Virus record (IMG/VR): IMGVR_UViG_3300015371_000014 | Coordinates: 1 to 64,000 of that record | Strand: one strand, 5' to 3' | Origin: a virus | Length of the DNA: 64,000 nucleotides | In this document: piece after piece, positions 974 through 62,366 of the stretch | Layout: every line of letters begins with the position of its first letter | Numbering within the stretch: position 1 is the stretch's first letter | Notes under the pieces: generated by a model | The model's input: the letters and a program-made list of their open reading frames with translations, nothing else | Databases searched by the model: none | What the model was told of the DNA's origin: nothing | Position numbers and translations under genes: made by a program

Positions 974-1570
974 GTGGTAAGGAAGCTCGCGGTGATCGTG
1001 CTGGCGCTCTCGCTGTTGACAGTGTCAAATGCAGAGGCGAAAAAGCACCATCACAAACATCCACAACCCTTCCAGCGGGAGATCTGGTACATCATCAACC
1101 AGCTTCCCTCCCAGTGGACGCCCCAACTCCAGGAGACGGTAGCTGACTTCAACGCCAACATGCCTGAGAAGGGACCGCTACTGGTCGTGATCAAAGGGGA
1201 TCCCGTGATCTGTGACACTCAGATCAAGCGGACTATCACCGTCTGTGGGGGTGATGGCGAATACGCAGGCGGGGAGTACTGGGGGCTGGCCTGGGGCATC
1301 GGTCACTCCGAAATGTCGATCTGGATGGATGTCGAGGGAGAGTGGATCCCTGACAGCCCAGACGAAGTAGAAGCGACGCTGTGCCATGAGCTTATGCACG
1401 AAGTTGGCCTTATTGACGACAACTACAACGCCATGCCCGATACCAGTTGCGTCTGGGGCAACCTCACTGATCTGGGGCCGTGGGACATCGCTCGTCTGCA
1501 CGCGGTATGGGATGACGGCACCAACGACACCCCAGAAGACGAAATCCAACAAAGGAAACACCATGCATAG
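974..1570 (+). CDS. Secreted zincin (matrixin-like) metallopeptidase
   Basis: Signal peptide ending AEA; HExxHxxG motif HELMHEVG. Confidence 0.7.
   Translation: MVRKLAVIVLALSLLTVSNAEAKKHHHKHPQPFQREIWYIINQLPSQWTPQLQETVADFNANMPEKGPLLVVIKGDPVICDTQIKRTITVCGGDGEYAGGEYWGLAWGIGHSEMSIWMDVEGEWIPDSPDEVEATLCHELMHEVGLIDDNYNAMPDTSCVWGNLTDLGPWDIARLHAVWDDGTNDTPEDEIQQRKHHA
1016..1028. promoter_or_regulatory. Palindrome variant TTGACAGTGTCAA (1-nt spacer)
   Basis: Perfect half-sites with a shorter spacer; inside the peptidase CDS. Confidence 0.45.
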
Positions 1571-1964
1571 CTATATCAATTGGTACGACGGAGAACGCGA
1601 CGTGAACATGGTTGGTCGCCATGTTTCCGCGAAGGTTGTGCTGGACAGCTTCCGTAGCGTCATCTCACGCGATCCTGTTCCACCAGACCCCAAAAATATC
1701 GAGATTATTGTGGCGTGGTATGGGTACGGGGATTACCACGGATCTGCCATCGTGGTCTATCGCGACAAACGTGATGGGAAGCTCTATGAGGTCAATGGCT
1801 GGCACTGCTCCTGTTATCAACTGGAAGGGCAGTGGAAACCAGAGGAGGTCGTCGTGAAAGAGCTTCTGGCACGACCTGTGTACGCCGATCTCAATCAATC
1901 AAGGGCAGAAGATAAAAAGGACATTGAGGACATTCGCCGCGAACTCGTCGCGAGGTTAGGATGA
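1563..1964 (+). CDS. Conserved phage hypothetical protein (HCSCY motif)
   Basis: ATG 1563 after AAGGA; YGDYHGSA and GWHCSCY motifs. Confidence 0.65.
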   Translation: MHSYINWYDGERDVNMVGRHVSAKVVLDSFRSVISRDPVPPDPKNIEIIVAWYGYGDYHGSAIVVYRDKRDGKLYEVNGWHCSCYQLEGQWKPEEVVVKELLARPVYADLNQSRAEDKKDIEDIRRELVARLG

Positions 1965-2334
1965 GAGACGACACTGTACGAAAGGCGATAATCGCCTTAG
2001 ACCTTACAAACGGAACTTGGGAGAAAAAGAACGTCTGGGAGATGGCCCCCGATCAGCAGGAGATCCTGGTGGACGCCTACTGGGAGATCTACAACGCCAA
2101 CCCTGATTTAGGGGTGCGAAGGATTCGGGCCGTCTCCACCACCCTCCTGATGCCTTCGTTCTTGGCTTTCGTGGATGACGTCAAGGACGTGGCGAGGAAG
2201 GTCTGATGCCGAACTGCGGTGACTACTGGCCGTCGTTGGAGTATTGGTGGTGTGACTATTGCCGGGACTATCACCGCTGCGGCGACTTCCCCTGGCTAGA
2301 TCCTGCGTGTTGTTCCGAAGAGCCTGAGGAAGAT

Positions 2335-2348
2335 TTGACACCTGTCAA
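2335..2348. promoter_or_regulatory. Palindrome TTGACACCTGTCAA
   Basis: Exact copy just upstream of the GAGGAGG RBS of ORF 2361. Confidence 0.85.
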
Positions 2349-2360
2349 CGAGGAGGAAAC

Positions 2361-2579
2361 ATGAAACGCACAACCTTCACGACTGAACTCCGCACGATCC
2401 TGCACAGAGGACACACTCTCCTCGTTCCTGAAGCGGAGTGCGCTCTCTGCCAACTTGAGATGGATGAGATCCTGCCTCTCTTCCATCACTATGTGGCAGA
2501 TTGGCTGAAGAAGCACAAAGACGATCCAGACATCGAGACAAAATGGCGGCAGCAGATCGGAGGGAAACCACCAGGATGA
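2361..2579 (+). CDS. Hypothetical protein
   Basis: Strong RBS GAGGAGG; ATGA overlap with next gene. Confidence 0.65.
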   Translation: MKRTTFTTELRTILHRGHTLLVPEAECALCQLEMDEILPLFHHYVADWLKKHKDDPDIETKWRQQIGGKPPG

Positions 2580-2998
2580 GCAACGACTGGCGCGGCATAG
2601 ACCGGGATCAAGTCTCCGAAGCGTACGGCACAATCATCACTGAAGAAGACATGGCGCGGATCTGGCCCATGATCGAGCTTGCGGCCACCTTGCACAACAC
2701 CAAGCCACCCCAGATCCTGCACGCGATGAAGCTGCGGAGAGAACTCAAAGAACAAGAAGCGGAGTTCACCCCGCCAAAACTGACCGTGAACGAAAACCAT
2801 ACCTATCCCTGCTGGGCCTACGACGAACTCAGGCGTTTTCTGCATGATGCGCTCGTGCGAGAACTCATGGTCAATAAGGTCACCCTTCGCCAAACCATCT
2901 ATGACCAAAAGGGCCATTCCAAAATCGCCAACATCGAGTATCCCGTAGATGAGTTTGTCGGCAAGATCATGGAGATTCTTGATGAACAATGTCGGTAA
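2576..2998 (+). CDS. Hypothetical protein
   Basis: ATGA-coupled start at 2576. Confidence 0.6.
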   Translation: MSNDWRGIDRDQVSEAYGTIITEEDMARIWPMIELAATLHNTKPPQILHAMKLRRELKEQEAEFTPPKLTVNENHTYPCWAYDELRRFLHDALVRELMVNKVTLRQTIYDQKGHSKIANIEYPVDEFVGKIMEILDEQCR

Positions 2999-3205
2999 CC
3001 CCTTGATCCGTGGTACGCTTGTAGCTATCGGACTCGCACTAGGGGGTTTTGCGGGTCTGGTGACGATGATGATCATTGCGGTCGGGAAAGAGCTTCTGGA
3101 GAAGGAGCGACATGAGCCTACGGAAGACTGTCGCTGAGATTGTGATATTTCTCAGGACAGCAAAGACAGAAACGATCACCGACGATCTGGTGAGGGGAGA
3201 CTTCG

Positions 3206-3421
3206 ATGTTGCCAGACAAAAGTGTGAAGCTGGAAGACGCGCTCGAAGCCAGAGCCGTTCAGGTCGCCGTCAACCGGAGGATGCTGCAGGAGGAGCGCAA
3301 ATCCTTCCCGGTGATCGCGATGATCGACACCCTGATTGATGAGGGGTTTAGTCCGACACAGGCAGGCAAGATTCTCAACCGCTCTGTCTTTCTCGCCCAT
3401 GCACTACAGGAGAAAACGTGA
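3206..3421 (+). CDS. Hypothetical protein, possible C-terminal HTH
   Basis: GFSPTQAGKILNRS; coupled to next gene. Confidence 0.45.
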   Translation: MLPDKSVKLEDALEARAVQVAVNRRMLQEERKSFPVIAMIDTLIDEGFSPTQAGKILNRSVFLAHALQEKT

Positions 3422-3654
3422 GTACATCCGGACCAACAAAGAAGTCGCGGGTCTGGGAGGTGATGCGCTTCATCACGAAGTACATCGATAGCAATGGCTA
3501 TCCTCCCTCCCTCCGCATTATCTCGCGAGAGGCCAACGTCTACCCCTCCTCTGTTGTCCACTACGTGAATCAGCTAGAGGAGTGGGGCTACATCCAGCGG
3601 GGTGACGATCCTCGCCGCCTTATCACGGTGACAGAGAAGGGACGAGAGCTTTGA
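3418..3654 (+). CDS. LexA-type winged-helix DNA-binding protein (no peptidase domain)
   Basis: FITKYIDSNGYPPSLRII...SSVVHYVNQLEEWGYIQR matches the LexA N-terminal domain. Confidence 0.85.
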   Translation: MSTSGPTKKSRVWEVMRFITKYIDSNGYPPSLRIISREANVYPSSVVHYVNQLEEWGYIQRGDDPRRLITVTEKGREL

Positions 3655-4118: not shown

Positions 4119-4352
4119 CGGCGGTACGAAGATTCAAGGTGAACTTAACGACACAGAGAACGAACTCCTAGAAGAAGCGATCAAGAAGTTCCCGAAAGGG
4201 AGTAAGGCACGCTACCTTGCCACCAATGGCGCGGCTGGTACCGTGATCAAGGTTCTGTACGAGCATCGCCTCTTTGACATCATGATCGGGGTGGACTTCG
4301 GCCACGGCAAGCCTCTGTATATCCCGGCTGCCCTGATGCGCCCGGTGGAGGT

Positions 4353-4676: not shown

Positions 4677-4703
4677 TAGAATGCCTCTGAAAGGAGGCGT
4701 CTC

Positions 4704-5776: not shown

Positions 5777-5779
5777 GTT

Positions 5780-9077: not shown

Positions 9078-10700
9078 ATGGCCGCGAATCTGATTTATCC
9101 CAATGGCGGAAGAATCACTTCGCGGCTCATCGTGCCGGATAGTGCCGATAAGACACGGGCGACCGTCGTTTCCGATGCGTTCTTTGGCCCAGCGTCTTCC
9201 GGCACAGCCTTTGCCGTTCCGAAAGCGACCGCAATTGGCGCAGGAATAGCCCCGCAGGTTTTGACATCTGTCAATCCGCCCCTCGCGACAGGAACCGGCG
9301 CGGGACTCGTTCCGACCCTTGCCCTTGTTGTGCCAAAAGCGGCCTCGACAGCGGCAGGAATAGTCCCACAGGTATCAAACACCTACTCTGCTCCTCTTGC
9401 CACCTCTACGGGCCTAGGAATCGTTCCTGGGGCATCTCTCGTTGCTGCTCCTCCCAAAGCAACCTCGACAGCAGCCGGAATCGCCCCACAGACCACGATC
9501 TCCTTTGCCGTTCCTGTGGCAACGGCCACGGGTGTGGCGTTTGCCCCAGATCTCGTCACAGGGGTGGTTTTCGCCCCTCCTGTTGCAACGGCCACCGGGA
9601 CAGGCATTGCTCCAGCGATGGGGGTTACCGCTGCGCCTCCCGTAGCAACATCTACGGTAGCGGGACTCGCGCCAACGCTCGCGATCTCTCCACCAAAAGC
9701 CACCGCGACCGGATCTGCTCTCGCACCTGTTCTGGCCCTCGCTCCACCGAAGGCATCTGCCACAGGTGCCGGAATCGCGCCTACCGATGTCACGACAGCT
9801 GCTCCCGCCAAGGCTACCGCCACCGGATCTGCCCTCGCGCCATCGTTGGCACTTGCACCACCAAAGGCATCCGCCACCGGGCAAGGATTAATCTTTACGC
9901 CCCAGACGGTGTATCCGGTCCCGGTCGCCACCGCAGCGGCAGTCGCGTATCCGCCAGATCTGCCGGGATTCCCCACCGTCTTTGCTCCTCCCAAGGCAAC
10001 TGCCACGGGGGCTGGTGTTGTTCCGTCCCTGGCAATTGCCCTCAACCCGCCAAAGGCGTCTGCCACAGGCCAGGGCATTGCACCTGCCATTGCAACCGCT
10101 TTTGCTGTTCCACGGGCCACTGCTACTGGGGCGGGAATCGTCCCTGCTGCTGTTGTTGCACCTGCGCCACCAAAAGCATCTGCGACCGGACAAGGCATTG
10201 TTCCCGCGCTCAAGGCGGCGATCTCCGTTCCGAAAGCGACGGCAACAGGGGCTGGTATTGCACCGTCTGTAGGGATCGCTGTTCCTCGCGCTACCGCTAT
10301 CGGGGCCGGAATCGTTCCCGCGCTCAAAGCGGCGATTGCTCTTCCCAGAGCCATCGCCACGGCTCAGGCGTATGCGCCAGAGGTTGTCTATCAGACCGGC
10401 GTCTTCGATGTCCCACGGGCGAACGCGACCGGGCAGGGCTTTGTTCTCACGCCCAGGGTGACGCTCTCTCTTCCCAAGGCTGCGGCGACGGTCGTTCCTT
10501 ACGCGCCGACGATGTTTACCTTCCGGCCTCAGCCGCAGTATTTCTTTGCGGAGATTGATCTGTCGTATCCTTTGCGAGCATCTCTGGAGCCAAGTCAGAA
10601 GCTCAGCGCAGAGATGACCTATGGCGTCACGATGAAGCAAAAATACGACCCTGATATCACGATTGTCCTGGGTGGTGTCCTTGATCTGGTGGAGGTGTAA
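9078..10700 (+). CDS. Ala/Pro/Thr-rich tandem-repeat protein (about 22 repeats of 18-23 aa)
   Basis: Repeat consensus P(K/V/R)ATATGxGxxP counted in the translation. Confidence 0.75.
   Translation: MAANLIYPNGGRITSRLIVPDSADKTRATVVSDAFFGPASSGTAFAVPKATAIGAGIAPQVLTSVNPPLATGTGAGLVPTLALVVPKAASTAAGIVPQVSNTYSAPLATSTGLGIVPGASLVAAPPKATSTAAGIAPQTTISFAVPVATATGVAFAPDLVTGVVFAPPVATATGTGIAPAMGVTAAPPVATSTVAGLAPTLAISPPKATATGSALAPVLALAPPKASATGAGIAPTDVTTAAPAKATATGSALAPSLALAPPKASATGQGLIFTPQTVYPVPVATAAAVAYPPDLPGFPTVFAPPKATATGAGVVPSLAIALNPPKASATGQGIAPAIATAFAVPRATATGAGIVPAAVVAPAPPKASATGQGIVPALKAAISVPKATATGAGIAPSVGIAVPRATAIGAGIVPALKAAIALPRAIATAQAYAPEVVYQTGVFDVPRANATGQGFVLTPRVTLSLPKAAATVVPYAPTMFTFRPQPQYFFAEIDLSYPLRASLEPSQKLSAEMTYGVTMKQKYDPDITIVLGGVLDLVEV
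9261..9274. promoter_or_regulatory. Palindrome TTGACATCTGTCAA
   Basis: Inside the repeat-protein CDS (LTSVN). Confidence 0.8.
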
Positions 10701-12442: not shown

Positions 12443-13988
12443 GATCACAGGACTGATTGATCCCTTTGCCCCGGTAGAGGGATATGATCCCCAGACAGAG
12501 CGCTTGCTCAACATCTGGGATACCGTCCTGGTTGATCGACCGACAAATGCGGAGTATCCCACCGACCCGATTGAGTTTATGCACGATTACCTGGGGATTC
12601 GCCCCTGGGCCAAGCAAGAGGAGATCGTCTATGCTGTCTGGGAGAACCGTTACACTTCTGTGGCATCCTGCCACGCTATCGGCAAAAGCTTCATCACTGC
12701 TGCCATCCTCATTACGTTCCTTCACACCCACGAGAACTCCATTGTCCTCTCCACCGCGCCAACCGGACGGCAAGTCGAGCATGTCCTCTGGCGTAACGTT
12801 CGTTCCCTCTGGAGACAAGCCAAAAGACCCCTCTTAGGGCGTCGGCCCCTCACGACCCGCTATGACATCGCGGATAACTGGTACGCGATGGGATTCAAGC
12901 CCAACGACCAGGAAACGGACCCTCTGCAAGGATTCCACGCCGAAAACTTACTCGCCATCATCGATGAAGCAGCGGGATCTCCTCCCTCGATCATTGACGG
13001 CATGATGGCGGCAATGACCTCTGGGGGATCGAAAATGATGATGATCGGTAACCCCACCTCCACGTCTGGTCCGTTTTTTGACTCCCATCACTCCAAAAAA
13101 GACCAATTCAAGACCTTTACCGTAGCGTGGCCCGATACCCCGAACTACACAGAGGGATACGACAAATTCGGCTATCTGATCACCCAGAAATGGGTTGATG
13201 ACGTGATTAGCCGGTATGGGGAAGAATCTCCCTACGTACAGTCCCGTGTCTATGCCCGATGGGTCAGTTCAGACGATGTGCTGATTTCTGGCTCTGATAT
13301 CGAGACGGCTCAGAACAGAGAGATCACCGAAGAGCAGTTTGCCATTCTGGAGCCGATTGAAGCTGGTCTAGACGTTGCTCGTGATGGTGGTGACCGCACC
13401 ATCCTCTGTATCCGGCGAGGAGCCTGGGTTGAGGGGATGTATCAGATCACCTCTGGCGACGGCATGGAAACAGCCGGAAAGGCGCTGCGGAAGATTCGAG
13501 ACATCGTTGGAGACGTGCCGGTTCACCTCAAGATCGATGAGATCGGTGTGGGCACCTCAGTCCTCGACTTCGCCAATCTTGCCACCAGGGACTTTTCGGA
13601 GTACCGCACCATTCGTGTTACTGGGGTGAACTTTTCCAAAAAGCCATGGGATATGGAGCAGTATTACAACCAGCGCTCTGAGGCGTACAATCTACTTGCT
13701 GGCCGATTCAAGTCTGGTCAGATCGGTGGAAATATTGCCAATGAGGCCGCGAGTGAGCTTTCGGACATTAAGACCAAATACAACGGGAAACACACCCAGC
13801 CAGTGGTGGAACCTAAGGATGAAATCAAGAAAAGACTGGGCCGCTCCCCGGACTACGCTGATGCGATTGTGTTAGCGTTCTACAACCCGCCACCCGATGA
13901 GATCAAACCGATAGGGGTGCTGGCATTCGGATACGCCAAGAACAACGTCCATACCTCTGGCGTGCCGCTGCAAATCAAGAAGAGGTGA
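12435..13988 (+). CDS. terL: Terminase large subunit
   Basis: Walker A CHAIGKS, Walker B IIDEAAG, GNPT, nuclease GLDVARDGGD and SPDYADA. Confidence 0.95.
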   Translation: MAEITGLIDPFAPVEGYDPQTERLLNIWDTVLVDRPTNAEYPTDPIEFMHDYLGIRPWAKQEEIVYAVWENRYTSVASCHAIGKSFITAAILITFLHTHENSIVLSTAPTGRQVEHVLWRNVRSLWRQAKRPLLGRRPLTTRYDIADNWYAMGFKPNDQETDPLQGFHAENLLAIIDEAAGSPPSIIDGMMAAMTSGGSKMMMIGNPTSTSGPFFDSHHSKKDQFKTFTVAWPDTPNYTEGYDKFGYLITQKWVDDVISRYGEESPYVQSRVYARWVSSDDVLISGSDIETAQNREITEEQFAILEPIEAGLDVARDGGDRTILCIRRGAWVEGMYQITSGDGMETAGKALRKIRDIVGDVPVHLKIDEIGVGTSVLDFANLATRDFSEYRTIRVTGVNFSKKPWDMEQYYNQRSEAYNLLAGRFKSGQIGGNIANEAASELSDIKTKYNGKHTQPVVEPKDEIKKRLGRSPDYADAIVLAFYNPPPDEIKPIGVLAFGYAKNNVHTSGVPLQIKKR

Positions 13989-13998
13989 CAGGTGTCAA
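13985..13998. promoter_or_regulatory. Palindrome GTGACAGGTGTCAA
   Basis: Contains the terL TGA stop and the portal GTG start. Confidence 0.85.
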
Positions 13999-15973: not shown

Positions 15974-16002
15974 TTGACAAAGCAGCGATGTTGCAGTACT
16001 CT
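15974..16002 (+). promoter_or_regulatory. Sigma70-type promoter
   Basis: TTGACA-17-TACTCT. Confidence 0.65.
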
Positions 16003-17373: not shown

Positions 17374-17402
17374 TTGACACCTGTCAATTTGGCACCTATG
17401 AT
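17374..17402 (+). promoter_or_regulatory. Capsid-operon promoter overlapped by palindrome TTGACACCTGTCAA (17374-17387)
   Basis: TTGACA-17-TATGAT; the -35 box is the left half-site. Confidence 0.85.
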
Positions 17403-22586: not shown

Positions 22587-22972
22587 TGCCCTGGCCGCTA
22601 CGCGAGGTTCCGAATCCTTTCTATGGCCCTGACGCACGTCCCTGGAATGATCTTTCCCCAGGATCCTACTGGACGATCCCAGCCGACAAAGAAGGCTATT
22701 TTGTTCGGCCCCTCTCACCAGAGTTTCATGCTTCGGGTCGAGACTTCGCGATCTTCATTACCTTGCCAGGGGGAGCGGAGTGGTGTCCAGACATGATCTC
22801 TTCTGAGAGTGGTCATGGTTGGACGGTTACAGGAGAACTCCCAAAGATCACTGCTCATCCAAGCGTGCATCAGATCGGTCGTTATCACGGATTCGTTACA
22901 GATGGCGTGCTAACCGACGATCTGGAAGGGCGCACCTACGATGACAGGAGTTTGACAGATGTCAATCTTTGA
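22586..22972 (+). CDS. DUF6527-like protein
   Basis: WTVTG..P.ITAHPSV....YHGFVTDG. Confidence 0.55.
   Translation: MPWPLREVPNPFYGPDARPWNDLSPGSYWTIPADKEGYFVRPLSPEFHASGRDFAIFITLPGGAEWCPDMISSESGHGWTVTGELPKITAHPSVHQIGRYHGFVTDGVLTDDLEGRTYDDRSLTDVNL
22952..22965. promoter_or_regulatory. Palindrome TTGACAGATGTCAA
   Basis: Contains ATG 22959. Confidence 0.85.
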
Positions 22973-27669: not shown

Positions 27670-27679
27670 CAGGTGTCAA
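27666..27679. promoter_or_regulatory. Palindrome TTGACAGGTGTCAA
   Basis: Contains the TGA stop and abuts the tape-measure ATG. Confidence 0.85.
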
Positions 27680-47202: not shown

Positions 47203-49223
47203 TGGCAAAGATTCTTCCCAAGGATCCGTTGACACCTGTCAATCCGGTTATCCAGCCAGACCCTCCCCCTCCCTCTGATACCACCTTCCCCAAGGGCAAT
47301 ATCACCACCAAGAACCCTATCAACAACACCGCGTACGGGATTCCCTGGACTCAGGTATCGCGCTGGTTCGAGTTCTTTAAATCCGCAGCGGCAGAGTTTG
47401 GCATCTCCCCACTTGATCTTGCGGCTATGTCTGTGATTGAGAGTAACTCCCAGCACTACACCACTGGCAAGACCACTGGCACCAAGGCCCAAGTCTTGAT
47501 CAGGGGTAATGATGGCTCTGGGGTACCCTCTGTTGGAATGATGCAAGTCAAGCCTCTGTACCATCAGAGTCGTGTCCCCGATGCGGACGCCTATACCCCG
47601 CAGGGAAACCTCCGTATGGCGGCAGCGATTCTGGGTCAGGAAGCGCAGCGGCTGGGGTCGGTGGATCAGGCCATCCTGAAAGCGTATTTCCCAAAGGATG
47701 ATCCCAATGGCACCACGCAAGCTGAATACCTTGAGACGAAAAGGAACCTTGTCAAAGAAATACAGGCTGCTAGCACTCCGACGCCTCCTCCACAACCGCA
47801 GCCTACAGACCCTTACCGGGTTCTGTTCGGCGGCGACTACCCGAAGGTTACATATGGGTTCCTCAGTGACGAGGGATACCCCTACTACGAGTTTGGAGTA
47901 GGCCATGGAACTACGAAGGCAACGCAACATACGGGTGACGATGTCCCCGTCCCGTTTGGAACAACGCTCTACGCCCCAGCAAGCGGTGTTGTCGAGTGTG
48001 TCGGAGAGCGCGGAACTCCCCATTGGGGCCAAGCTTGCGGAGCCTACACAGACACCGGAGATGCCGGTCCCGATGGCAAGATCATCGGCGTCGGGAATAT
48101 CACCATTTATCTTGACTCCGGACATAAACTCACTCTTGGACATTGCCGAACCTGTGACTGGAGCGTGGGTAGCCGGATCGAGAAAGGAGCCAAAATTGGC
48201 TCGTCTGGTGGTCAGAACGGCGCTCACACGCACGTTGAAATATCGGTCGAGCGAGATGGAACGTACTGGCTCATAGATCCTTTCAAGGGTCTGCAAGCCG
48301 CCATGAGCGGCGGGGTGATCGACACCCGGCCCATGGTCTTGTTCGCTGGCGCAACCCGCTCCGTGCCTCTCAGCGTGCCGTACCGGCAGGTACTCCTCCC
48401 ACCCTCCCAGAAGAACCAGCGCCCTGGCATCAGGATGACGCCGAAGAAGTTCATCCAGCACGAGACAGACAACACCAATCCTGGTATGGGCGCTGCCGCT
48501 CATCTGCGCTTTCTCCAGAATGGCGCTCGTGACGATAACGGAAACCCGCAGCAGCTTGGGTTCCACTTTGCCGTGGATGATGTCGAGGTCATCCAGATGA
48601 TCCCTCTCAATGAGGCCACATGGCATGGGGGAGATGGGGGCCAGGGACTTTGTAATCTGCAGACCGTGGCCTGTGAGCTTTGCGTAGAAGACAACAACGT
48701 CAATAAAGTTCAGGCACGCAAGAATGCCGAAGAAGTCGCCGCTGCGGTGATGACGGCGATGGGGATACATGAGATCGAGCAGCACTCCTGGTGCTGTGCG
48801 AACGCGGGATTAGGAGCCGGAAGTGGGTGCCACACCAATTGCCCCAGATTTATCAGAGCCGATAACTACTGGCCGACCTTCCTCGTCAATACCCAGAAGT
48901 GGCTTAACTCAGGCGGAACAGGAACTACTCCAACCTACGCTAACCCTGCTCTTCCTCCTGAATTTACAGGCGATGATGTCACCGTCAACAATGTCCGCTT
49001 CCTCGCCCTGCAGCGAAACTTCGTCGCCAAACAAGATGGCGTCCCGGCTCTCCAGTACGCTGATCTAAAATCCAATCCTGTTCGCGCTCCTCTGATGAAG
49101 GGCGAGAAGTTCACCGCACTGTATCTGATCGTGGTCAACAAAGAGCAGTGGCTGGTGAGTCAGTTTGGTTCGCGCATCCCTGCTAACCTATGCGAGCCTG
49201 CCGTGACGGTCGTAGGGAGCTAA
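47202..49223 (+). CDS. Endolysin: SLT/lysozyme + M23 peptidase + amidase_2 + C-terminal domain
   Basis: IES..GMMQV; HTGDD..HTH; QHET, FHFAVDD, TWHGG, ELC, CP. Confidence 0.9.
   Translation: MAKILPKDPLTPVNPVIQPDPPPPSDTTFPKGNITTKNPINNTAYGIPWTQVSRWFEFFKSAAAEFGISPLDLAAMSVIESNSQHYTTGKTTGTKAQVLIRGNDGSGVPSVGMMQVKPLYHQSRVPDADAYTPQGNLRMAAAILGQEAQRLGSVDQAILKAYFPKDDPNGTTQAEYLETKRNLVKEIQAASTPTPPPQPQPTDPYRVLFGGDYPKVTYGFLSDEGYPYYEFGVGHGTTKATQHTGDDVPVPFGTTLYAPASGVVECVGERGTPHWGQACGAYTDTGDAGPDGKIIGVGNITIYLDSGHKLTLGHCRTCDWSVGSRIEKGAKIGSSGGQNGAHTHVEISVERDGTYWLIDPFKGLQAAMSGGVIDTRPMVLFAGATRSVPLSVPYRQVLLPPSQKNQRPGIRMTPKKFIQHETDNTNPGMGAAAHLRFLQNGARDDNGNPQQLGFHFAVDDVEVIQMIPLNEATWHGGDGGQGLCNLQTVACELCVEDNNVNKVQARKNAEEVAAAVMTAMGIHEIEQHSWCCANAGLGAGSGCHTNCPRFIRADNYWPTFLVNTQKWLNSGGTGTTPTYANPALPPEFTGDDVTVNNVRFLALQRNFVAKQDGVPALQYADLKSNPVRAPLMKGEKFTALYLIVVNKEQWLVSQFGSRIPANLCEPAVTVVGS
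47229..47242. promoter_or_regulatory. Palindrome TTGACACCTGTCAA
   Basis: In the 5' end of the endolysin CDS (LTPVN). Confidence 0.85.
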
Positions 49224-51184: not shown

Positions 51185-51660
51185 TCTTGACCCCATGCCA
51201 TCACGGCACCACGGAACGGATAGTTGTCGGAAAAGTCTTGCAGTCTAGATTCGTCCCCATCCCACAGGTTGACCCTGCCAGTGACGACATCGATATAGCC
51301 AACGTACCAGGAGTTCCCGTGATCGTAACCGTCCACCCACTTCTCTTGATAGATGCAGATGCCAAGGTTGCCAAGCATGTTCGGCCAGATCCACCATTCG
51401 GGATTGAGCCGGGGATCGTAGAGAGCTTGGCGCATCCAGCCGATGGTTGGTGTAACCCATTCATCTTGATCGCGACGGTAGATCAGGGTGGGCGGGAAAG
51501 TCTCATCCTTCGCTGTCCAACGATGACCCTGATCGAACTCCATATTGGGATCGTACGTCGGGGCTGGGAGTTCGGCCATCTGGCCTGTGTTCTCGATCTC
51601 TTCGTCGGCCAGTTGAAATGCTTGCTTGGCAGCTTCGGGACGAACGATGTGTCGTGTCAT
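51181..51660 (-). CDS. Hypothetical protein
   Basis: Coupled on both sides. Confidence 0.6.
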   Translation of the reverse strand: MTRHIVRPEAAKQAFQLADEEIENTGQMAELPAPTYDPNMEFDQGHRWTAKDETFPPTLIYRRDQDEWVTPTIGWMRQALYDPRLNPEWWIWPNMLGNLGICIYQEKWVDGYDHGNSWYVGYIDVVTGRVNLWDGDESRLQDFSDNYPFRGAVMAWGQE

Positions 51661-52367
51661 GGTGATCCCCTGCCGTTCTTGACGAATGCCTCTGCTACGA
51701 GGGGCCAGTGCCGAAAGAAAGCATCTTCCATCTGTAGGGCGAGTTCCTCGATTTCTGCCATAGGATAGGTAGCGAAGGTGTTCCTGGTGTCATTGACTCG
51801 CAAGGAGAGGAAGTGCATCAGAGAGCGAGGATTGAAGGTGACGTGCATCCTGGTATAGATAGCCACCGGCAGGACGGTACGTGCAACCTCGTTGGCAATT
51901 CCCTCGCCAATCATGGTCTTGTAGCTGTCCCACGCATGGCGATAGGAAACACCCTGGCACACGCCCACGAGATGGTGGTGATACTCAGGCGTTTCTCCCT
52001 GCTCCATTGCGGGACGGGCGGATGTGCCGGTGTTGACGAGTCCTCGTTCAGGACGTGGCACCCAGAAGATTGGTTCGAGTTCGGTGTAGCGGCCAGACAT
52101 CTCATTGATGCTAACGCCGATGCGGTGCCGCACAAGCTCCCGTGCCACGAATATGGGGATGTGTAACCGAAACTGAAGCCAGCCCTGCTCAAAGGGAGAG
52201 CCGTGGCGATGCTTCATTAGGTAGTTGAGGAGTCCAGCTACCCGATTCTCGTCTCGCTGCTCGACATTACCCAATGACACCCATGCTGCTTGAGCAATCG
52301 TTAGGTCACTCCCAGCATGATTGAGCAGGGTAGCGGTGATGTCGGAGGTCAGAATGACACCTGTCAA
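51657..52367 (-). CDS. thyX: FAD-dependent thymidylate synthase
   Basis: HGSPFE, RHRIGVSINEMSGRY, EVARTVLP, NPRSLMHFLSLR; start probably the TTG inside the palindrome. Confidence 0.95.
   Translation of the reverse strand: MTGVILTSDITATLLNHAGSDLTIAQAAWVSLGNVEQRDENRVAGLLNYLMKHRHGSPFEQGWLQFRLHIPIFVARELVRHRIGVSINEMSGRYTELEPIFWVPRPERGLVNTGTSARPAMEQGETPEYHHHLVGVCQGVSYRHAWDSYKTMIGEGIANEVARTVLPVAIYTRMHVTFNPRSLMHFLSLRVNDTRNTFATYPMAEIEELALQMEDAFFRHWPLVAEAFVKNGRGSP
52354..52367. promoter_or_regulatory. Palindrome ATGACACCTGTCAA
   Basis: Contains the TTGA start/stop overlap of thyX and the upstream nuclease. Confidence 0.85.
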
Positions 52368-52771
52368 CGCGTTATCCCCCTCAGAAGCGCAGCCTTGACT
52401 TGTGGATTCGCAGCCTTGAGATCGATCATCTCTCCACCGGCTGGGACTAACCACACGTCACCGACGTAGCGGGTGAAACTCGTATCTTCTTCCACCTTGG
52501 TTTTGAGTTGGCGGGTAATAACACGGAGGTTCCACTCTGACTGGGGTGGTGGAAGGAAATTCTGGAGTGCGAGCATCAACGCGTTAGCCCTGGCCTTTCC
52601 ATCCTCTGTCCAGATTTCTGGCTCCCACAGATCTGCGATGCGGATGTTCGTCTTGTGCCGACCATCCATACCGTTGTCGGTTAGCACCACAATCGTGTCA
52701 GCGTCGTGGACACGAATCAGACTGGCGCGAAAATGCCACAGATACTCGCGGTCCCACTCTTTCGCATTCAC
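52364..52771 (-). CDS. Thermonuclease (SNase)-like protein
   Basis: RVHDADTI, IRIADLWEPE, FTRYVGDV. Confidence 0.75.
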   Translation of the reverse strand: MNAKEWDREYLWHFRASLIRVHDADTIVVLTDNGMDGRHKTNIRIADLWEPEIWTEDGKARANALMLALQNFLPPPQSEWNLRVITRQLKTKVEEDTSFTRYVGDVWLVPAGGEMIDLKAANPQVKAALLRGITR

Positions 52772-53133
52772 GTCACTTCCTCCACATGCTTGTTGTAGCC
52801 AAGACCAGAGTCAGCCCACTTTCGTTGCAGGTTGATCTGGTGCTTGTCATACAGGCATTGCGCTACGTCAATCCCTGTAGCATCAGCGATGGCGTAGAGG
52901 AGCATCAGGTTATCCGCGATCTCCATGGCGAGCTTCGTTGTATGGACATCGCTTTCCCAGGGAATACGGTTCCAGGCTGCAAAGGCTTGGTCGAGTTCCT
53001 GGCGTTCCTCTTGCATATGGTTGATGATGCGCTGTGGTTCAGCCATCTGTTGTGGGAATGTTTCCCGGCACCATGCCTGAATCTCTTGGATCAGAGCTTT
53101 GTTGAACCAGTCTATTTTTATCAGGTCATTCAT
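52768..53133 (-). CDS. MazG-like nucleotide pyrophosphohydrolase
   Basis: EERQEL...EIAD...K..IN..RKW. Confidence 0.8.
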   Translation of the reverse strand: MNDLIKIDWFNKALIQEIQAWCRETFPQQMAEPQRIINHMQEERQELDQAFAAWNRIPWESDVHTTKLAMEIADNLMLLYAIADATGIDVAQCLYDKHQINLQRKWADSGLGYNKHVEEVT

Positions 53134-53821: not shown

Positions 53822-54130
53822 TTAAAACCTCCTCCCTCTCTTTCGTCCTGGCCGGTTGTGCTTCTTTCCGCTTTTTTTCCTGGCAACACTACGCAAGGCA
53901 TACATGGTTCGCTGATCGACAAAGACGGAGGTGATCTCGCGTGGGGATCGATGCTTGCGCTTGATGTCCAGGTAGTCGGCAATGGAGATTGGCGCGTTGT
54001 TCTCGATACCCTCTGCGATGCCGCGACCGAACGCCTCTCCTGCCGGGACATGCTCAGAGTTGGATGATTGTTCTCCTCGCGCTAAAACGCGCTTCTTCGC
54101 TTTCTCCATCAGTTCATCGAGTTCTGACAC
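53822..54130 (-). CDS. Hypothetical protein with basic C-terminus
   Basis: GTG start within the palindrome. Confidence 0.55.
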   Translation of the reverse strand: MSELDELMEKAKKRVLARGEQSSNSEHVPAGEAFGRGIAEGIENNAPISIADYLDIKRKHRSPREITSVFVDQRTMYALRSVARKKSGKKHNRPGRKRGRRF

Positions 54131-54137
54131 CTGTCAA
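54124..54137. promoter_or_regulatory. Palindrome CTGACACCTGTCAA
   Basis: Contains the minus-strand GTG start at 54130. Confidence 0.85.
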
Positions 54138-54152: not shown

Positions 54153-54578
54153 CTAGGGGCCTTTTTGCGCGTTTGGGGGGCATATGGCGGCAACGTAGTG
54201 TTGCGCTCCTGCCATCGTGACTTCCTTGGATATTCCCTCAGGGCCAGGAAGGGCTGGCTTGTACACCCCACAGGTCGAGAGATACCCATACACATAGCCA
54301 GTGACGTAGTACGGTTTGGTTGGCTCTGGGATCGGTTCAAAGCTGAGTGGGGTAGGGGTGACCAGGAACTCTATCGATACCGGCGTGGCGTGAGTCCGTA
54401 TCGGAATCGGCACCACCGGCTCTGCGGTGACACGAAAGATCATGATCGCCCCTACCGCTAGCATTACCGCGATCATCAGGAACGCCAGAATGATCAGCAG
54501 TCTGTCTTGTATCTCAGAACGGGGGGTAGGGGAGAAACTCTTCGGGTTCGTTCTGTTTTTGGGTGTCTCCAGTGACAT
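54153..54578 (-). CDS. Single-pass membrane protein
   Basis: Hydrophobic LLIILAFLMIAVMLAVGAIMIF. Confidence 0.55.
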   Translation of the reverse strand: MSLETPKNRTNPKSFSPTPRSEIQDRLLIILAFLMIAVMLAVGAIMIFRVTAEPVVPIPIRTHATPVSIEFLVTPTPLSFEPIPEPTKPYYVTGYVYGYLSTCGVYKPALPGPEGISKEVTMAGAQHYVAAICPPNAQKGP

Positions 54579-54990
54579 CGTACTCCCCTAGCTGCAAGGC
54601 GAGATAACGGAAGTTGGCTGGCGAGAACCCCGTTGAGCTAGGGGTGATGAACATCACCAGGGCCAGGGCGCCGATAGGACAGTGATCGTATCCCAGGATG
54701 GTGCCAACGTCTCCAGCGGTGATCCCGAACCGGCTAACGTGTGAAACAACCTGAGTGCCTACCGGCAGATCCTTCAGGCATCCCTTGCCCTGCGTCTCGT
54801 CATAGGACATGTCAAAGACGATGACGGCACGATTCCCCATGTCGGGATTGAAGTGGAACTGCACCTCCGCGTTGTCAAGCGTGGAGAGTGCCTCGTTGAC
54901 TGCCAGGAAGAACTTATCTTCGCTGTCTACCGCATTCTCTGGGTAGTTGTAGCTCTGCCGCACGACCATGGTTTGCTTGACGGTTTTCAC
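54514..54990 (-). CDS. Hypothetical protein
   Basis: AAGGAGG RBS downstream of the promoter at 55029-55057. Confidence 0.65.
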   Translation of the reverse strand: MKTVKQTMVVRQSYNYPENAVDSEDKFFLAVNEALSTLDNAEVQFHFNPDMGNRAVIVFDMSYDETQGKGCLKDLPVGTQVVSHVSRFGITAGDVGTILGYDHCPIGALALVMFITPSSTGFSPANFRYLALQLGEYDVTGDTQKQNEPEEFLPYPPF

Positions 54991-55028: not shown

Positions 55029-55057
55029 ACCTTACCACAACGTCTACTCTTTGTCAA
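55029..55057 (-). promoter_or_regulatory. Sigma70-type promoter
   Basis: TTGACA-17-TAAGGT with TG extension. Confidence 0.7.
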
Positions 55058-55986: not shown

Positions 55987-56334
55987 TTAGGTGCTGTTAA
56001 TTCTTTCCTCTGGGCGGCTAACAATGAGCTTTCCTTCCGCAATATGGTCAATCAGCTGACCAACTGATCCCTGACCCGCTGTGTCTCCTGACTTCAGGAA
56101 GAGCTTATGAGCGGCAGCGATCTCCATCGCTTTTTCCCAGAGTCCTGGGGTGACGTAGATCACTCGCTGTTCCTTGTTGCCGACTGACTTCGGTACGTAG
56201 CCGATGATCTGCGAGACACGCTGCCGACTCACTCCGTACTTACGGGCAATGGCGGAACGAGTCCACCCCTGATCAATCAGCCCTAGCCATGTCCGTTCAA
56301 CGTTAGGATCCTCGATCTTTCTCTCGATTGGCAT
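55987..56334 (-). CDS. HTH DNA-binding protein
   Basis: GWTRSAIARKYGVSRQRVSQII. Confidence 0.8.
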   Translation of the reverse strand: MPIERKIEDPNVERTWLGLIDQGWTRSAIARKYGVSRQRVSQIIGYVPKSVGNKEQRVIYVTPGLWEKAMEIAAAHKLFLKSGDTAGQGSVGQLIDHIAEGKLIVSRPEERINST

Positions 56335-56343
56335 AGTCCCTCC

Positions 56344-56673
56344 TCATGCCAGTAGTTCCAACATTCTGGCCCAGTCATCAGGGTTGGGACGCAAGACGTA
56401 GACGAAAACGCCGAACCAGTGTGCGTTCTGGTGCCACCTCAATTGGGCGGCACTAAGCTCAGATCCCTTCTTCATGGTCTTGAGTTCGATCAGGCGATAC
56501 TGATCACCACGGAACATCAGTAGATCGGGGATGCCCTTCTTGTTGCCGATCATGTTCCGGATATGCTCCACCATCCATCCGTAGTGACCAGCCGACTGAA
56601 TCACGGCTTGTTGCCACTGTCCCTCTGTGTACTTCTCCAGGTTGACGGGGCACTCTAGGGTGACTGGTGGCAT
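56344..56673 (-). CDS. VRR-NUC domain nuclease
   Basis: GIPDL...IELK...LSAAQLRW. Confidence 0.85.
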   Translation of the reverse strand: MPPVTLECPVNLEKYTEGQWQQAVIQSAGHYGWMVEHIRNMIGNKKGIPDLLMFRGDQYRLIELKTMKKGSELSAAQLRWHQNAHWFGVFVYVLRPNPDDWARMLELLA

Positions 56674-57715: not shown

Positions 57716-57758
57716 GACTCCCTCTACGACATGGGATTCCGACTTCCCATCTGGTCGT

Positions 57759-57787
57759 ACCTTACCACAACTATGGTGCTTTGTCAA
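57759..57787 (-). promoter_or_regulatory. Sigma70-type promoter
   Basis: TTGACA-17-TAAGGT; near twin of 55029-55057. Confidence 0.7.
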
Positions 57788-58035
57788 GAGTATCTGTTGC
57801 GTCTCTGGAGGAATTGTCGCTTCTCCTCCAGAGAGGAAAACACCCTGTTTCCGGCTCGCTGGTTGCAGTGGAAGCAAGACGCGACGAGATTGCTGCGAGC
57901 ATTGCCGCCACCACGAGAGCCAGGGATAACGTGGTCTACCGTGGTGGCGAATCTCCCGCAATAGATACAGGTGTAATTGTGTTCCTTGAGGACGGATCGA
58001 TGAACGGTCTTACCAGGACGGATCCTCCGACCCAC
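57784..58035 (-). CDS. HNH endonuclease
   Basis: CIYCG..TVDHVIP.SRGG...NLVASCFHCN. Confidence 0.85.
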   Translation of the reverse strand: MGRRIRPGKTVHRSVLKEHNYTCIYCGRFATTVDHVIPGSRGGGNARSNLVASCFHCNQRAGNRVFSSLEEKRQFLQRRNRYS

Positions 58036-59986
58036 TGTCGTTCTCCTCATCAAAGAGCGTCCCAGCCGGAACCATCGTTCGGGGTGTGATGAGGAGGTGT
58101 TCTGGCAAGGGGATATACGGGTCAGAACCGATAGGTGATGACTCACGGTGACCGGCATAGCGGAAGCGGCCAGTAGCTCGATCAAAGAGGAACTCACAGA
58201 TCCCGACTTCGCCTGTGATGCCCTCTTTGCGGTGCTTGGCGATTTCCACCAGGGTCTTCCCCTTGTCTTCACCGAACATGACGCGGTTGATGGTAACAAA
58301 GACATCCGCCTTGTTGTACCAGTGCATCGCGCCAGCTGCCTCCATCGGAGAGGGGTTGCGATCCATGGTTTTGGCGGTGTCTGGCTTACGGGGGTGGATC
58401 ACGATGATGGCGGAACAGTTCCGTCGCTTGCACCACTGGCGAATCGTGGAGAGGGACTGAGAGATATATTCCTCCACCGTCGCCCCTTTATTACGGGCAG
58501 ACTCGCACTCATTCCAGGGATCGATGACCAGCACATTCATGCCTGACTTGATCACCGCTGGCTCTGCCTGCGCGAGGATCTTCGGTATCGTCAGCGCGGC
58601 GAATCCCTGCGCGTTGTTCTCCTCCGCGTAGATCTCGAAGAACTTATCCCCAACCCAGTCGGCTGCGATCTCCACCGCTTCCCAGGAGGGACGCTTCTCT
58701 GCGCTGGGGAGGAAGGGCGCATCGAGAATGATCTGCACGAACTTGCCCAGCATCTCCCCTTCCTCGCCCATCTCTGGTGAGTACAACCCGACCCGCCAGT
58801 CGTTGATGCGAGCGAGGTTAGTGAGGAAATGGTTCAACCAGGAGGTCTTACCTCTGCCAGGGTATCCAGAGACGATGTAGAGCTTGCCAAGCTCAGGCCG
58901 GAAATAGTGATCAAATTCCTCCCAGCCAGAGCTAACCCCAGGAGCATATCCGTGGTCGTAGATCCGTCGTAGAGCTTCCTTCTGTTCACTGAGGGGCCTG
59001 AGGCCAGGGGTTGGGGCCGGGATGGCGTGACTGAGGATGTGATCGAGCTTCTTCGCTCCGTCTCGTACCAGTACCTCATTCGCATCCTTCGCACCCCATT
59101 TGTTCCAGTGGACTTGCCAACACTTCATTGGTCCTAGCGTTTCGATCAGATAGCTAGCGAGCGCCTTACCCTCGATGTCAGCGTCTGTGGCAATGATGAC
59201 TCGATCAGCATCTTCGAAGAGCTTCCTGGCCTCAGGGGTTTCGAACGCCGCACCCTTCTTGCCGATCTCTGCCACCTTGCCGGTAGCTTTCTTGCCCTCA
59301 TAGATCTGACCCGGTGCGCCATCAGGAGAAGAGACGGCTTTCCAGCCTGCGATGTGACAGGCGATGACATCGAACTCCCCCTCCGTGATCACGATCACCT
59401 TACTGCCTTGACACCTGTCAATATTGAACAGGGTGCGGGCAGCGCCCCTGGTCTGGCGGAACTCCTTCGGCAAAGTACGGGACTTGACATTGACCAGCTT
59501 GCCATCGAGGTAGTACGGGATGTGAACCGTCCTGGCAATCTCTCCGTTCTCCATCTTCTTGGCAGTGGAAGTAATCCCGAACTCAACCGCGACCTTAGTC
59601 GGGATTGCTCGCTCCTCCTCCAGCCACGTTTCGGCCCAATCCTCTAACGTGTTCGAAGGGAGGACTGCGGCGGGATAGGCTTGTGGCGCAAATTCAGCCC
59701 CTCTGGCGCGTGTTTGCACGCGAATAGGGTTAGGATCCATCTTGGCCTCCCGGCCTAGCTTGTGAGCCTCAGATTTAAGGGAACCGGAATAGCCGCAGCG
59801 ATGGCAGTTCCAGACGCCATCCTCGATGTTGACGCTCAGATCCCGGTGATTCCGATTGCTCCAGCTGTGGCTCTCAGAACACTCCGGACAACGCGTCTTG
59901 ATATCCCTTCCGGAATAGGAAGAGGCGGGGAACTCAATCCCCACCTCCGCGAACGTGACACCAATCTCCGCTTCGATTGATGACAT
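58010..59986 (-). CDS. Primase-helicase (Zn finger + TOPRIM + SF4; T7 gp4/Twinkle-like)
   Basis: CPEC..CHRC, ITEGEFD, ATDAD, KDANE, GYPGRGKT, LVIDPW. Confidence 0.93.
   Translation of the reverse strand: MSSIEAEIGVTFAEVGIEFPASSYSGRDIKTRCPECSESHSWSNRNHRDLSVNIEDGVWNCHRCGYSGSLKSEAHKLGREAKMDPNPIRVQTRARGAEFAPQAYPAAVLPSNTLEDWAETWLEEERAIPTKVAVEFGITSTAKKMENGEIARTVHIPYYLDGKLVNVKSRTLPKEFRQTRGAARTLFNIDRCQGSKVIVITEGEFDVIACHIAGWKAVSSPDGAPGQIYEGKKATGKVAEIGKKGAAFETPEARKLFEDADRVIIATDADIEGKALASYLIETLGPMKCWQVHWNKWGAKDANEVLVRDGAKKLDHILSHAIPAPTPGLRPLSEQKEALRRIYDHGYAPGVSSGWEEFDHYFRPELGKLYIVSGYPGRGKTSWLNHFLTNLARINDWRVGLYSPEMGEEGEMLGKFVQIILDAPFLPSAEKRPSWEAVEIAADWVGDKFFEIYAEENNAQGFAALTIPKILAQAEPAVIKSGMNVLVIDPWNECESARNKGATVEEYISQSLSTIRQWCKRRNCSAIIVIHPRKPDTAKTMDRNPSPMEAAGAMHWYNKADVFVTINRVMFGEDKGKTLVEIAKHRKEGITGEVGICEFLFDRATGRFRYAGHRESSPIGSDPYIPLPEHLLITPRTMVPAGTLFDEENDSGSEDPSW
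59408..59421. promoter_or_regulatory. Palindrome TTGACACCTGTCAA
   Basis: Inside the primase-helicase CDS (IDRCQ). Confidence 0.85.
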
Positions 59987-59997
59987 CGTATTCCTCT

Positions 59998-60843: not shown

Positions 60844-60886
60844 TTGCGTATGCCTCCTCACAGGCTATCGCGTCTGCGGACGGAAG

Positions 60887-60919
60887 GGGAGCGGGATAGG
60901 CACCGCTCCCTATTCTTTT
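60887..60919. terminator. GC hairpin between the parB-like and rep genes
   Basis: GGGAGCGG-8-CCGCTCCC then TATTCTTTT on +. Confidence 0.5.
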
Positions 60920-60955
60920 GCCCGTCCTGCAAGTATATCCTATCGTGTCAATGCT

Positions 60956-62254
60956 TTAGAACGGTGCTTCCTCCTCGTCTTCATTGGCGAAGAAGGTTTC
61001 GGTCAGGGAATCCGTTGCGCCCTCGACGTATGCCTTGACATCGTCTGGCATCTCGTCGTCTTCCTCTTCCTCCTCGACCACGGTGAAATCCTTGAAGGAC
61101 ACATCGGCGGCATCATGAACCGTTGTCTCATCGGGCATGCCAGCCTCTTCCCATTCCTCTGTTGCGGCGTCGTAGGCAGCGATCTCTTCCACGACCGGGC
61201 TGGTGCCCAACAGATCGAGGATGTACTTCAGGGTGTCCTTGGCTTCCTTCTGGTCGTCGGTCAGCTTCTTGACGTGGCTGAACTCAACGCTTGCCATGGT
61301 GAGCAGCTGAACGATGTTGTTGAGCCGGTCTTCCTTGGTGACCTTGCTCTGGCGCGTTTTCTTCTCAGGCGTGGCAAGCTCGCGTGGCTCATCTCCACCC
61401 GTAAGTTCGAATCCCTGCTCCTCATTGATCAGGTCCGCGCTGCTCTCAAGCTCCGCATCATCGTAAGGAAGCTCGCCCTTGTCATCGAAGAGGGATGAGG
61501 GAAGGTCGTTTTCCAGGGACTGCACAACGTTGAACTTGCGAGCCTCGATAACCTCGTCGGAGGTAATGCGGCCATTCTGATCGAGGATTGCCAGCAGGCG
61601 AGCCGTCCCAGCAGGCCCAAGACGAGAGGCATGCTTGGCGCTCCATGGCTTCATCTTGTCCTGCTCAACCGCCTTGAACAGGCGCGGGTGCAGCTTCTGG
61701 CCGATGTCGCGCAGCGCACGCACTGTCTCCAGAGGGGTACCGGAAGCCGCCGCAATGGTCTGCTCCGTGTAACCCTGCTCCATTAGATCCTTGACCGTCC
61801 GCGCATCACCCGTGACGTTCTCACCGCGCTTGTAGTTCATGCTCAGAGAGCGGAGCTTCAGGTCGCGCTGGGTCTTGCGAGGGTTGATCACTGCCGGGAT
61901 AGAGGAGAACCCATTCGCTCCCTCTGCGTGCAGCATATTGAAGGTCTTGAGCCGTCGTCGCCCCTCGACCACCACGTAGCGATCTCCGACCGCCTCAACC
62001 ACGATGGGAACTTCTAGTCCGTTGGCGCGAACGTCATCCACGAAGCTCTCCGTGGGGTAGTCGCCAATATCCTCCCAGCCATCGATGTCACCCAGAGCGA
62101 TCAGGCGGGACTGGAATGCCTTTGGGGTAACCTGTGCGGTGGTCAGAACCGGAAACGATGGCCCATCGGCCTCGCCGCCATTCCCATTCGCCGCGACCTT
62201 TGGCTGCGCGACTTCCGCCTCTGCCTCTACCGTTTGCTTCTTCACTCGTGGCAC
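60956..62254 (-). CDS. ParB/RepB/Spo0J-family protein with HTH and long acidic tail
   Basis: GLEVPIVV..YVVVEGRRRL, SMNYKR, HTH YTEQTIAAASGTPLETV. Confidence 0.88.
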   Translation of the reverse strand: MPRVKKQTVEAEAEVAQPKVAANGNGGEADGPSFPVLTTAQVTPKAFQSRLIALGDIDGWEDIGDYPTESFVDDVRANGLEVPIVVEAVGDRYVVVEGRRRLKTFNMLHAEGANGFSSIPAVINPRKTQRDLKLRSLSMNYKRGENVTGDARTVKDLMEQGYTEQTIAAASGTPLETVRALRDIGQKLHPRLFKAVEQDKMKPWSAKHASRLGPAGTARLLAILDQNGRITSDEVIEARKFNVVQSLENDLPSSLFDDKGELPYDDAELESSADLINEEQGFELTGGDEPRELATPEKKTRQSKVTKEDRLNNIVQLLTMASVEFSHVKKLTDDQKEAKDTLKYILDLLGTSPVVEEIAAYDAATEEWEEAGMPDETTVHDAADVSFKDFTVVEEEEEDDEMPDDVKAYVEGATDSLTETFFANEDEEEAPF

Positions 62255-62304
62255 TGGATCCTCCTGGTTTCTCTCTGCCGGGGAACTCCCCCGACCACAC
62301 TTAC

Positions 62305-62333
62305 AAGATAGCAGACCTTACACCCTCTGTCAA
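62305..62333 (-). promoter_or_regulatory. Promoter of the parB-like gene
   Basis: TTGACA-17-TATCTT with TG extension. Confidence 0.7.
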
Positions 62334-62352
62334 GGGTTTTTCTGTACCAATT

Positions 62353-62366
62353 TTGACAGGTGTCAA
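62353..62366. promoter_or_regulatory. Palindrome TTGACAGGTGTCAA
   Basis: Intergenic, 19 bp upstream of the parB-like -35 box. Confidence 0.85.

Follow-up and report, generated by a model that had tools for sequence, protein, structure and literature searches.

Among described systems, the KorA/KorB pair of the IncP-1 plasmid RK2 is by analogy the closest to the one considered here: a 14-bp palindrome (core TGACA-NN-TGTCA) repeated across the genome of an uncultured soil phage deposited as IMG/VR record IMGVR_UViG_3300015371_000014 (hereafter G000; 80,353 bp with a 123-bp terminal repeat), whose first 64 kb constitute the window, together with two proteins encoded on the same genome, the KorA/ArdK-like helix-turn-helix (HTH) protein g77 and the ParB-like protein g86. 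In RK2 the operators of KorA and KorB have the same TTTAG arms, set at different spacings, and the KorB clamp is locked by KorA (PMC11790492). As in that plasmid (PMC11790492), a ParB-fold protein and a small KorA-type HTH protein occur on one replicon, and a short palindrome is dispersed over 60–80 kb with some copies only a few bp ahead of promoters and others far from them. Unlike RK2, the replicon is here a tailed phage in which no ParA (IncC) and only one enriched palindrome type were found, the sites are significantly even in spacing, many of them lie inside genes or on stop or start codons, and g86 bears an acidic tail resembling that of the single-stranded DNA-binding protein (SSB). 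An earlier note on this DNA had drawn the comparison with RK2 KorB, and it remains the best available.

A second counterpart is ArdK of plasmid R388 (PMC9723621; PDB 7BBQ, 7BCA, 7BCB), which has in common with g77 the SRQRVS helix and perhaps the HTH-linker-beta/alpha layout, and with the palindrome the TTGACA arms identical to a −35 box, including an operator that uses the promoter's own −35 (here the site at 17374). ArdK differs in binding direct repeats at five promoters and in needing spacers of 3–4 bp for inverted repeats, whereas the 17 sites of G000 are inverted repeats with a 2-bp spacer, mostly off promoters, and the similarity between the proteins is weak (E about 5e-3).

Cluster A mycobacteriophages such as L5 carry dozens of asymmetric, 13–14 bp repressor-binding stoperators in both genome arms, oriented with transcription, often in short intergenic gaps or on start or stop codons and with one copy on an early promoter. 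The present sites are likewise dispersed in gaps and on start and stop codons, with one on a promoter, but they are pseudo-palindromic, both CC and GG orientations occur among the sites of co-directional operons, and neither an immunity repressor nor an integrase was found. The chromosomal ParB-parS and Noc-NBS systems share with this phage the fold of g86 and, for Noc, dispersed sites, and the CACGTG core of parS recurs in the site of a relative, L204; they are set apart by a 16-bp rather than 14-bp site with different outer bases, by ParA and by clustering near the origin.

In the explanation that we favor, with a probability of about 0.4, the palindrome would be part of a plasmid-style, KorA/KorB-like operator network, read by g77 with g86 as partner. 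No description of evenly spaced palindrome arrays in phages was found in the literature searched.

Abundance and Sequence of the Palindrome

The window contains 13 copies of TGACANNTGTCA (TGACA-NN-TGTCA), against 0.07 expected and at most one per shuffle when dinucleotides are preserved. All 13 had been reported in the earlier note, and their occurrence is non-random. Four more, at 66091, 69661, 71183, and 71259, bring the whole genome to 17 (coordinates are those of 14-mer starts; the 12-mer cores begin one base later). The center is CC or GG in 15 of the 17 sites and TC or GA in two; within the window the respective counts are 11 and two, as previously given. No site departs from TTGACACCTGTCAA by more than one mismatch, and variants with two or three mismatches are almost absent. 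A second enriched palindrome family was not found, nor were ArdK-style direct repeats of TTGACA, and no bias of orientation or strand was seen among the palindromes.

Eight sites lie inside coding sequence, against 0.12 in codon-preserving shuffles, the control suggested in the earlier note. The motif is under selection as DNA, as the note had claimed; it is also conserved in relatives and uses two reading frames at intragenic sites (both described below). Of a further site that it had listed, the 1-nt-spacer variant TTGACAGTGTCAA inside g4 (1016–1028), the presence is confirmed but not the significance, as at least one copy occurs in 12 of 100 shuffles, a frequency compatible with chance.

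Placement of the Sites

The sites are more evenly spaced than random ones both in the window (coefficient of variation 0.35, P = 1e-4) and in the genome (0.55 vs. 0.92 for random placement, P = 0.006), in agreement with the even spacing (mean gap about 5 kb) given in the note. Twelve of the 17 touch non-coding DNA or a gene boundary, compared with an expectation of 13% (P about 1e-7), and at several junctions the TGA of the motif is the stop codon of the upstream gene and/or the central GTG or ATG is the start codon of the next. The intergenic copy TTGACACCTGTCAA at 2335–2348 lies 12 nt before the start of g7. Within the copy at the terminase/portal junction (13985–13998) are the TGA that ends g28 and the GTG that begins g29; the copy at the g40/g41 junction (22952–22965, center GA) contains the ATG of g41, that at the junction before the tape-measure gene (27666–27679) the TGA stop of g50, and that between g68 and the thymidylate synthase gene thyX (g67) on the minus strand (52354–52367) both the g68 stop and the g67 start. 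Another (54124–54137) lies at the start of g73, on the minus strand, where an intergenic gap of 383 nt ends. Two are associated with promoters: the left arm of the copy at 17374–17387 is the −35 box of the capsid-operon promoter (TTGACA-N17-TATGAT, 17374–17402), and the copy at 62353–62366 lies upstream of the ParB-like/replication operon, 20 nt upstream of the −35 of its promoter.

Five sites of the window are truly intragenic, as had been stated, and more than one reading frame is indeed used: two frames occur, and the third would create a TGA stop. They are found in g24 (9261–9274, center TC, read as L-T-S-V-N), twice in the 2049-residue g52 (36526–36539, read as L-T-G-V-S, and 41326–41339, near the 3′ end), 27 nt into g60 (47229–47242), and in the primase-helicase gene g84 (59408–59421, I-D-R-C-Q, residues 189–193).

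The overlap of several sites with start codons, where they follow purine-rich ribosome-binding sites, is what an RNA hairpin (UUGAC-ACCU-GUCAA) that acts at gene starts, on translation or on the stability of the mRNA, might produce. Such a hairpin is highly improbable: its stem would have only 5 bp, its loop would differ between sites because co-directional operons contain a mixture of CC and GG orientations, and copies also occur in the middle of genes and in non-transcribed promoter DNA. The same mixture of orientations argues for a reader that acts at the level of DNA and has two-fold symmetry.

Conservation in Related Genomes

The comparison set comprised two full genomes, G000 and G001, and one fragment, L204. 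G001 is an IMG/VR record of 79,344 bp that was recovered with a ParB-family profile and again with a capsid profile; it is syntenic with G000, with proteins about 35–60% identical (terminase 58%, portal 54%, capsid 62%, ParB-like protein 36%, g77 homolog 49%) and a G+C content of 62% vs. 56%. L204, a 6.3-kb soil contig whose primase is 52% identical, was the single near relative obtained from scans of metagenomes and genomes. Megablast and tblastn searches gave no near relative of G000 among cultured phages, scans of IMG/VR with g86 alone, with terminase and with a primase profile gave only distant phages, all devoid of the motif, and the exact 14-mer gave only single chance matches in IMG/VR among the matches listed.

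In G001 the core (ACACCTGT/ACAGGTGT) is present in 17 copies against about 2.4 expected, and looser matches number about 20–26 vs. 4 in a reversed-sequence control and are evenly spaced (P = 0.015). The sites of G001 lack the conserved outer TT, though the 26 promoters of that genome keep a perfect TTGACA. Six G000 sites could be mapped through homologous genes, and for five of them a G001 site lies within 200 bp (P = 1.5e-4). The match is exact at the terminase/portal junction (G001 position 23042) and at the junction before the tape-measure gene (9526), and the capsid-promoter site also has a conserved position (18253). Conservation of the intragenic sites, a check proposed in the earlier note, holds for the region and not for the codons: in the primase-helicase the motif falls on residues 232–236 of the G001 homolog rather than at residue 189, in g52 one G001 site is 42 bp from the mapped position and the other about 35 codons off and thus not in register, and in the g60 homolog the site is 153 nt into the gene. 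The different codons indicate that what is kept is a site in the region and not a codon string. Sites that move within genes while staying in the region and evenly spaced form an unusual evolutionary signature, and the combination of regional turnover with even spacing suggests a function that depends on distance along the DNA, for example on the reach of a sliding clamp.

The single site of L204, TTGACACGTGTCAA, is a perfect palindrome and lies about 420 nt upstream of where the parB-like gene begins, with a short predicted open reading frame and a promoter in between. Co-occurrence of the motif with a parB-like gene, another check named in the note, is seen in G000, G001, and L204.

The rep-like gene of G001, right after the parB-like gene, contains three 22-nt iterons ACCCCTGACACCCRTGTCAC (TGACA-N4-TGTCA) at 42695–42772 (L426:2695–2772), likely an origin with arms like those of the dispersed motif; iterons of this type were not found in the rep-like gene of G000.

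These iterons, together with the sites at the terminase/portal, pre-tape-measure, and pre-capsid-operon junctions and those flanking the variable middle of g52, are compatible with a DNA-level signal that has no dedicated regulator, such as recombination linkers at module boundaries, programmed nicks or replication and packaging signals. A length of 14 bp is short for homologous exchange, even spacing and the site inside the primase-helicase gene do not fit module borders, and the absence of orientation or strand bias also counts against such signals, which we regard as improbable.

Promoters and the Host-Factor Alternative

Sigma70-type promoters of the form TTGACA-N17-TAnnnT occur 12 times in G000, against two expected, and every copy is intergenic. 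In the window they lie at 15974–16002 and 17374–17402 on the plus strand and at 55029–55057, 57759–57787, and 62305–62333 on the minus strand, the last being the promoter of the g86 operon (TTGACA-N17-TATCTT); beyond it they lie at 66057, 67771, 67988, 68185, and 71212 (minus) and at 72134 and 79663 (plus). Many have a TRTG-like −16 element (TGTGGTAAGGT). In G001 the 26 promoters have the form TTGACA-N12-TATGGTAnnAT, and many are arranged as divergent pairs. The style of the promoters and the strong AGGAGG ribosome sites suggest a Gram-positive-like host.

Palindromes adjoin four of the 12 promoters, those of the capsid, g95, and ParB-like operons and of g104: the copy at 66091 precedes the −35 of the g95 operon by 5 nt, and those at 71259 and 71183 flank the g104 promoter on both sides. 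The remaining sites are distant from any promoter, in the interior of long operons. The palindromes were also considered as a promoter set in their own right and rejected, because a −10 element 16–18 bp downstream exists only for 17374, the one site that uses a palindrome arm as −35, and the other 16 score like random DNA in both directions.

Since the arms equal the −35 consensus of all 12 phage promoters, a host factor could read the sites, either region 4 of sigma-A or the RNA polymerase holoenzyme on paired −35 hexamers, or a nucleoid protein. This too is improbable, if slightly less so than a signal without a regulator: a suitably spaced −10 accompanies only one of the 17 sites, the G001 sites have given up the outer TT that its promoters retain, and the two genomes, which differ in G+C content and in the restriction sites that they avoid, nevertheless share the motif and two DNA-binding proteins.

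One promoter, at 67988–68016 on the minus strand (L005:5988–6016, L005 being the piece of G000 beyond the window), has as its −35 the left arm of an inverted repeat with a 5-bp spacer, TTGACA-CAGCC-TGTCAC; this single copy could be due to chance or represent a second operator spacing.

The KorA/ArdK-Like Protein g77

The TGACA arms point to g77 (115 residues; 55987–56334, minus strand) as the reader. This protein contains the helix VSRQRVSQI, is conserved in G001 and matches the Pfam families HTH_23, Sigma70_r4, and, weakly, KORA. Phmmer aligned it with R388 ArdK (7bca/7bbq; E about 5e-3) over 58 residues that cover the HTH, the linker, and the start of the dimerization element; a word-based homolog search returned only g77 itself. 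The SRQRVS sequence of the recognition helix is identical to that of ArdK, and SRQRV is also present in the G001 homolog. Crystal structures show that ArdK binds TTGACA arms, in which R45 and Q46 read the G and the C-paired G of TGxCA, and that its HTH resembles region 4.2 of sigma70 (PMC9723621). The R-Q-R invariant between g77 and its G001 homolog matches these base-contacting residues. Two residues after R-Q-R, the homolog has A in place of Q, in the genome whose sites lost the outer TT, which hints at covariation, though in two genomes only. Operators of the KorA family include inverted repeats with spacers of 0–6 bp (PMC9723621).

In the proposed network, a g77 dimer would read the two TGACA arms. 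Bound sites at the four promoters would modulate transcription of the capsid, g95, and ParB-like operons and of g104, and the 13 further copies, located at junctions and in long genes about every 5 kb, would bring every part of the genome within the range of the system, probably in conjunction with the co-conserved g86; by analogy with the shared operator arms of RK2 and the locking of the KorB clamp by KorA, both proteins may act on one network.

Several observations weigh against this explanation. Reading of the arms alone leaves the strongly conserved CC center unaccounted for, most sites are far from promoters and would not be needed by a simple repressor, and no palindrome is found at the g77 promoter in G000 or G001. 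ArdK itself prefers direct repeats, and inverted repeats with spacers of 0–2 bp are not repressed (PMC9723621). The KORA match of g77 (E 0.009) reaches 16.6 bits, below the Pfam cut-off of 26.7, its G001 homolog has no KORA match in Pfam, and the AlphaFold2 (AF2) model is poor, with a predicted local distance difference test score (pLDDT) of 57.

Another small DNA-binding protein, g11 (78 residues; 3418–3654, plus strand), consists of a LexA_DNA_bind winged helix on its own and has no peptidase domain. It is unlikely to be the reader because G001 keeps the motif and lacks a g11 homolog.

The ParB-Like Protein g86

The gene g86 (60956–62245, minus strand) encodes an orphan protein of the ParB/Noc/KorB fold that combines a GxRR box and an HTH domain with an acidic tail, the last residues of which are EEEAPF. 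Although g86 itself has no Pfam match, phmmer aligned it with Thermus Spo0J (1vz0; E 4e-7), EGRRRLK facing AGERRYR and the HTH facing that of Spo0J, and it matches ParB-like families of PHROG. It has 572 homologs; among 32 checked, ParB_N was detected in 23 and HTH_ParB in seven. In the predicted structure (pLDDT 78), Foldseek gave a probability of 1.0 to Noc, ParB, and KorB, with ~200 aligned columns over the N-terminal and DNA-binding domains. Judged from these alignments and the model, g86 is a genuine member of this fold, in agreement with the earlier "ParB-like" call. Where the GERR box has its glutamate, g86 carries R and KorB carries A.

A role in segregation, with the palindromes as a centromere, had been proposed as well, and this part is not supported: the KGGxGK[ST] Walker box of ParA-type ATPases is absent from both G000 and G001, the ParA-binding motif [LFI]G[KR]G[LFI] (as defined in PMC12704722) is absent from g86 and from its counterpart in G001, and among the proteins scanned there was no integrase. 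g86 is thus an orphan ParB, of a kind frequently met in phages and for the most part without a known role (PMC12704722). ParBs without a DNA-binding domain that activate a thymine dioxygenase have been described (PMC13229309), but g86 does not belong with them, as it has a DNA-binding domain and no such enzyme turned up among the proteins scanned.

That g86 itself reads the palindrome is somewhat less likely than reading by g77. The palindrome would then be a parS- or OB-like site on which g86 loads as a cytidine triphosphate (CTP)-dependent sliding clamp that coats, organizes or silences the genome, and g77 would do something else, for instance bind the −35 boxes of promoters. The ParB N-domain with its GxRR box, the aligned HTH, the Foldseek results and the ParB_N and HTH_ParB matches of the homologs agree with this possibility, as does the position of the sites upstream of the g86 operon promoter (62353) and before the parB-like gene of L204. 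In its CACGTG core, with CG in the middle, and in its T-rich end, the L204 palindrome TTGACACGTGTCAA is similar to type I parS (PMC5450999). A clamp that slides over a limited range would fit the conserved center, the even spacing and the regional turnover, and the distance of KorB operators from promoters ranges from 4–10 bp to over 1 kb (PMC11790492). On the other hand, the aligned recognition helix of g86 (TPLETVRA) does not have the residues known to read TGxCA, which g77 has, no site directly precedes the parB-like gene in G001, and one motif is common to all three relatives. The earlier proposal of g86 as the reader thus retains its real ParB/KorB fold and the site upstream of its promoter, but the helix match of g77 means that g86 is not the sole candidate and perhaps not the best one.

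The center of the motif bears on the same question. Many 6-bp palindromes are avoided to an extreme degree in G000, including CGATCG (0 vs. 45 expected), TGGCCA (0 vs. 31), ACCGGT (0 vs. 28), and CACGTG (0 vs. 11.5), and G001 avoids different ones (CCGCGG, 0 vs. 55; GCCGGC, 0 vs. 32). Because CACGTG is missing and such avoidance is widespread in both genomes, the CC center may be a restriction-avoiding form of a CACGTG core, which would explain it under recognition by g86; it is nevertheless specifically conserved in both. GATC, in turn, is about 2–3 times over-represented (689 copies in G000, 915 in G001).

Acidic tails with a terminal aromatic residue are found in four proteins of the replication region, g86 (EEEAPF), g84 (58010–59986; SEDPSW), g74 (54514–54990; PYPPF), and g90 (63645–63995; YDEPF), and resemble the SSB tip and the tails of T7 gp4 and gp2.5. 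The tail is kept across the ParB-like (...EEEPPF) and primase-helicase families. A more elaborate, rather unlikely version of cooperation between the two proteins is a "clamp and lock" grid, in which KorA-like dimers on the ~5-kb palindromes would load or stall ParB-fold clamps whose ...EEEAPF tails would recruit replication and repair enzymes along the genome; were it true, selection would keep the position of a site and not its sequence context.

If the favored operator network of g77 and g86 is confirmed, the long-range KorA/KorB control logic of resistance plasmids would extend to tailed phages. Two small proteins and one 14-bp site constitute a concrete and cheap test case for an orphan phage ParB.

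Other Features of the Genome

A self-trained codon model called 121 genes in G000. The datasets that contain its sequence are rhizosphere metagenomes, with no RNA dataset among those listed. Besides the genes already mentioned, it encodes ThyX (g67, 51657–52367), a MazG-like pyrophosphatase (52768–53133), a VRR-NUC nuclease (56344–56673), and a GP88-family protein (L005:13599–14390), and no DNA polymerase gene was recognized among the proteins scanned.

Directly beside the paired palindromes at 71183 and 71259, three repeats of the form CCACGGTTTT-N6-7-CGTTCGAA occupy genome positions 71270–71400 (L005:9270–9400), from which a non-coding stretch of 1.4 kb runs on to 72680. The CCACGGTTTT/CGTTCGAA repeats border an 11-kb region free of palindromes (71.3–80.3 kb plus 0–2.3 kb).

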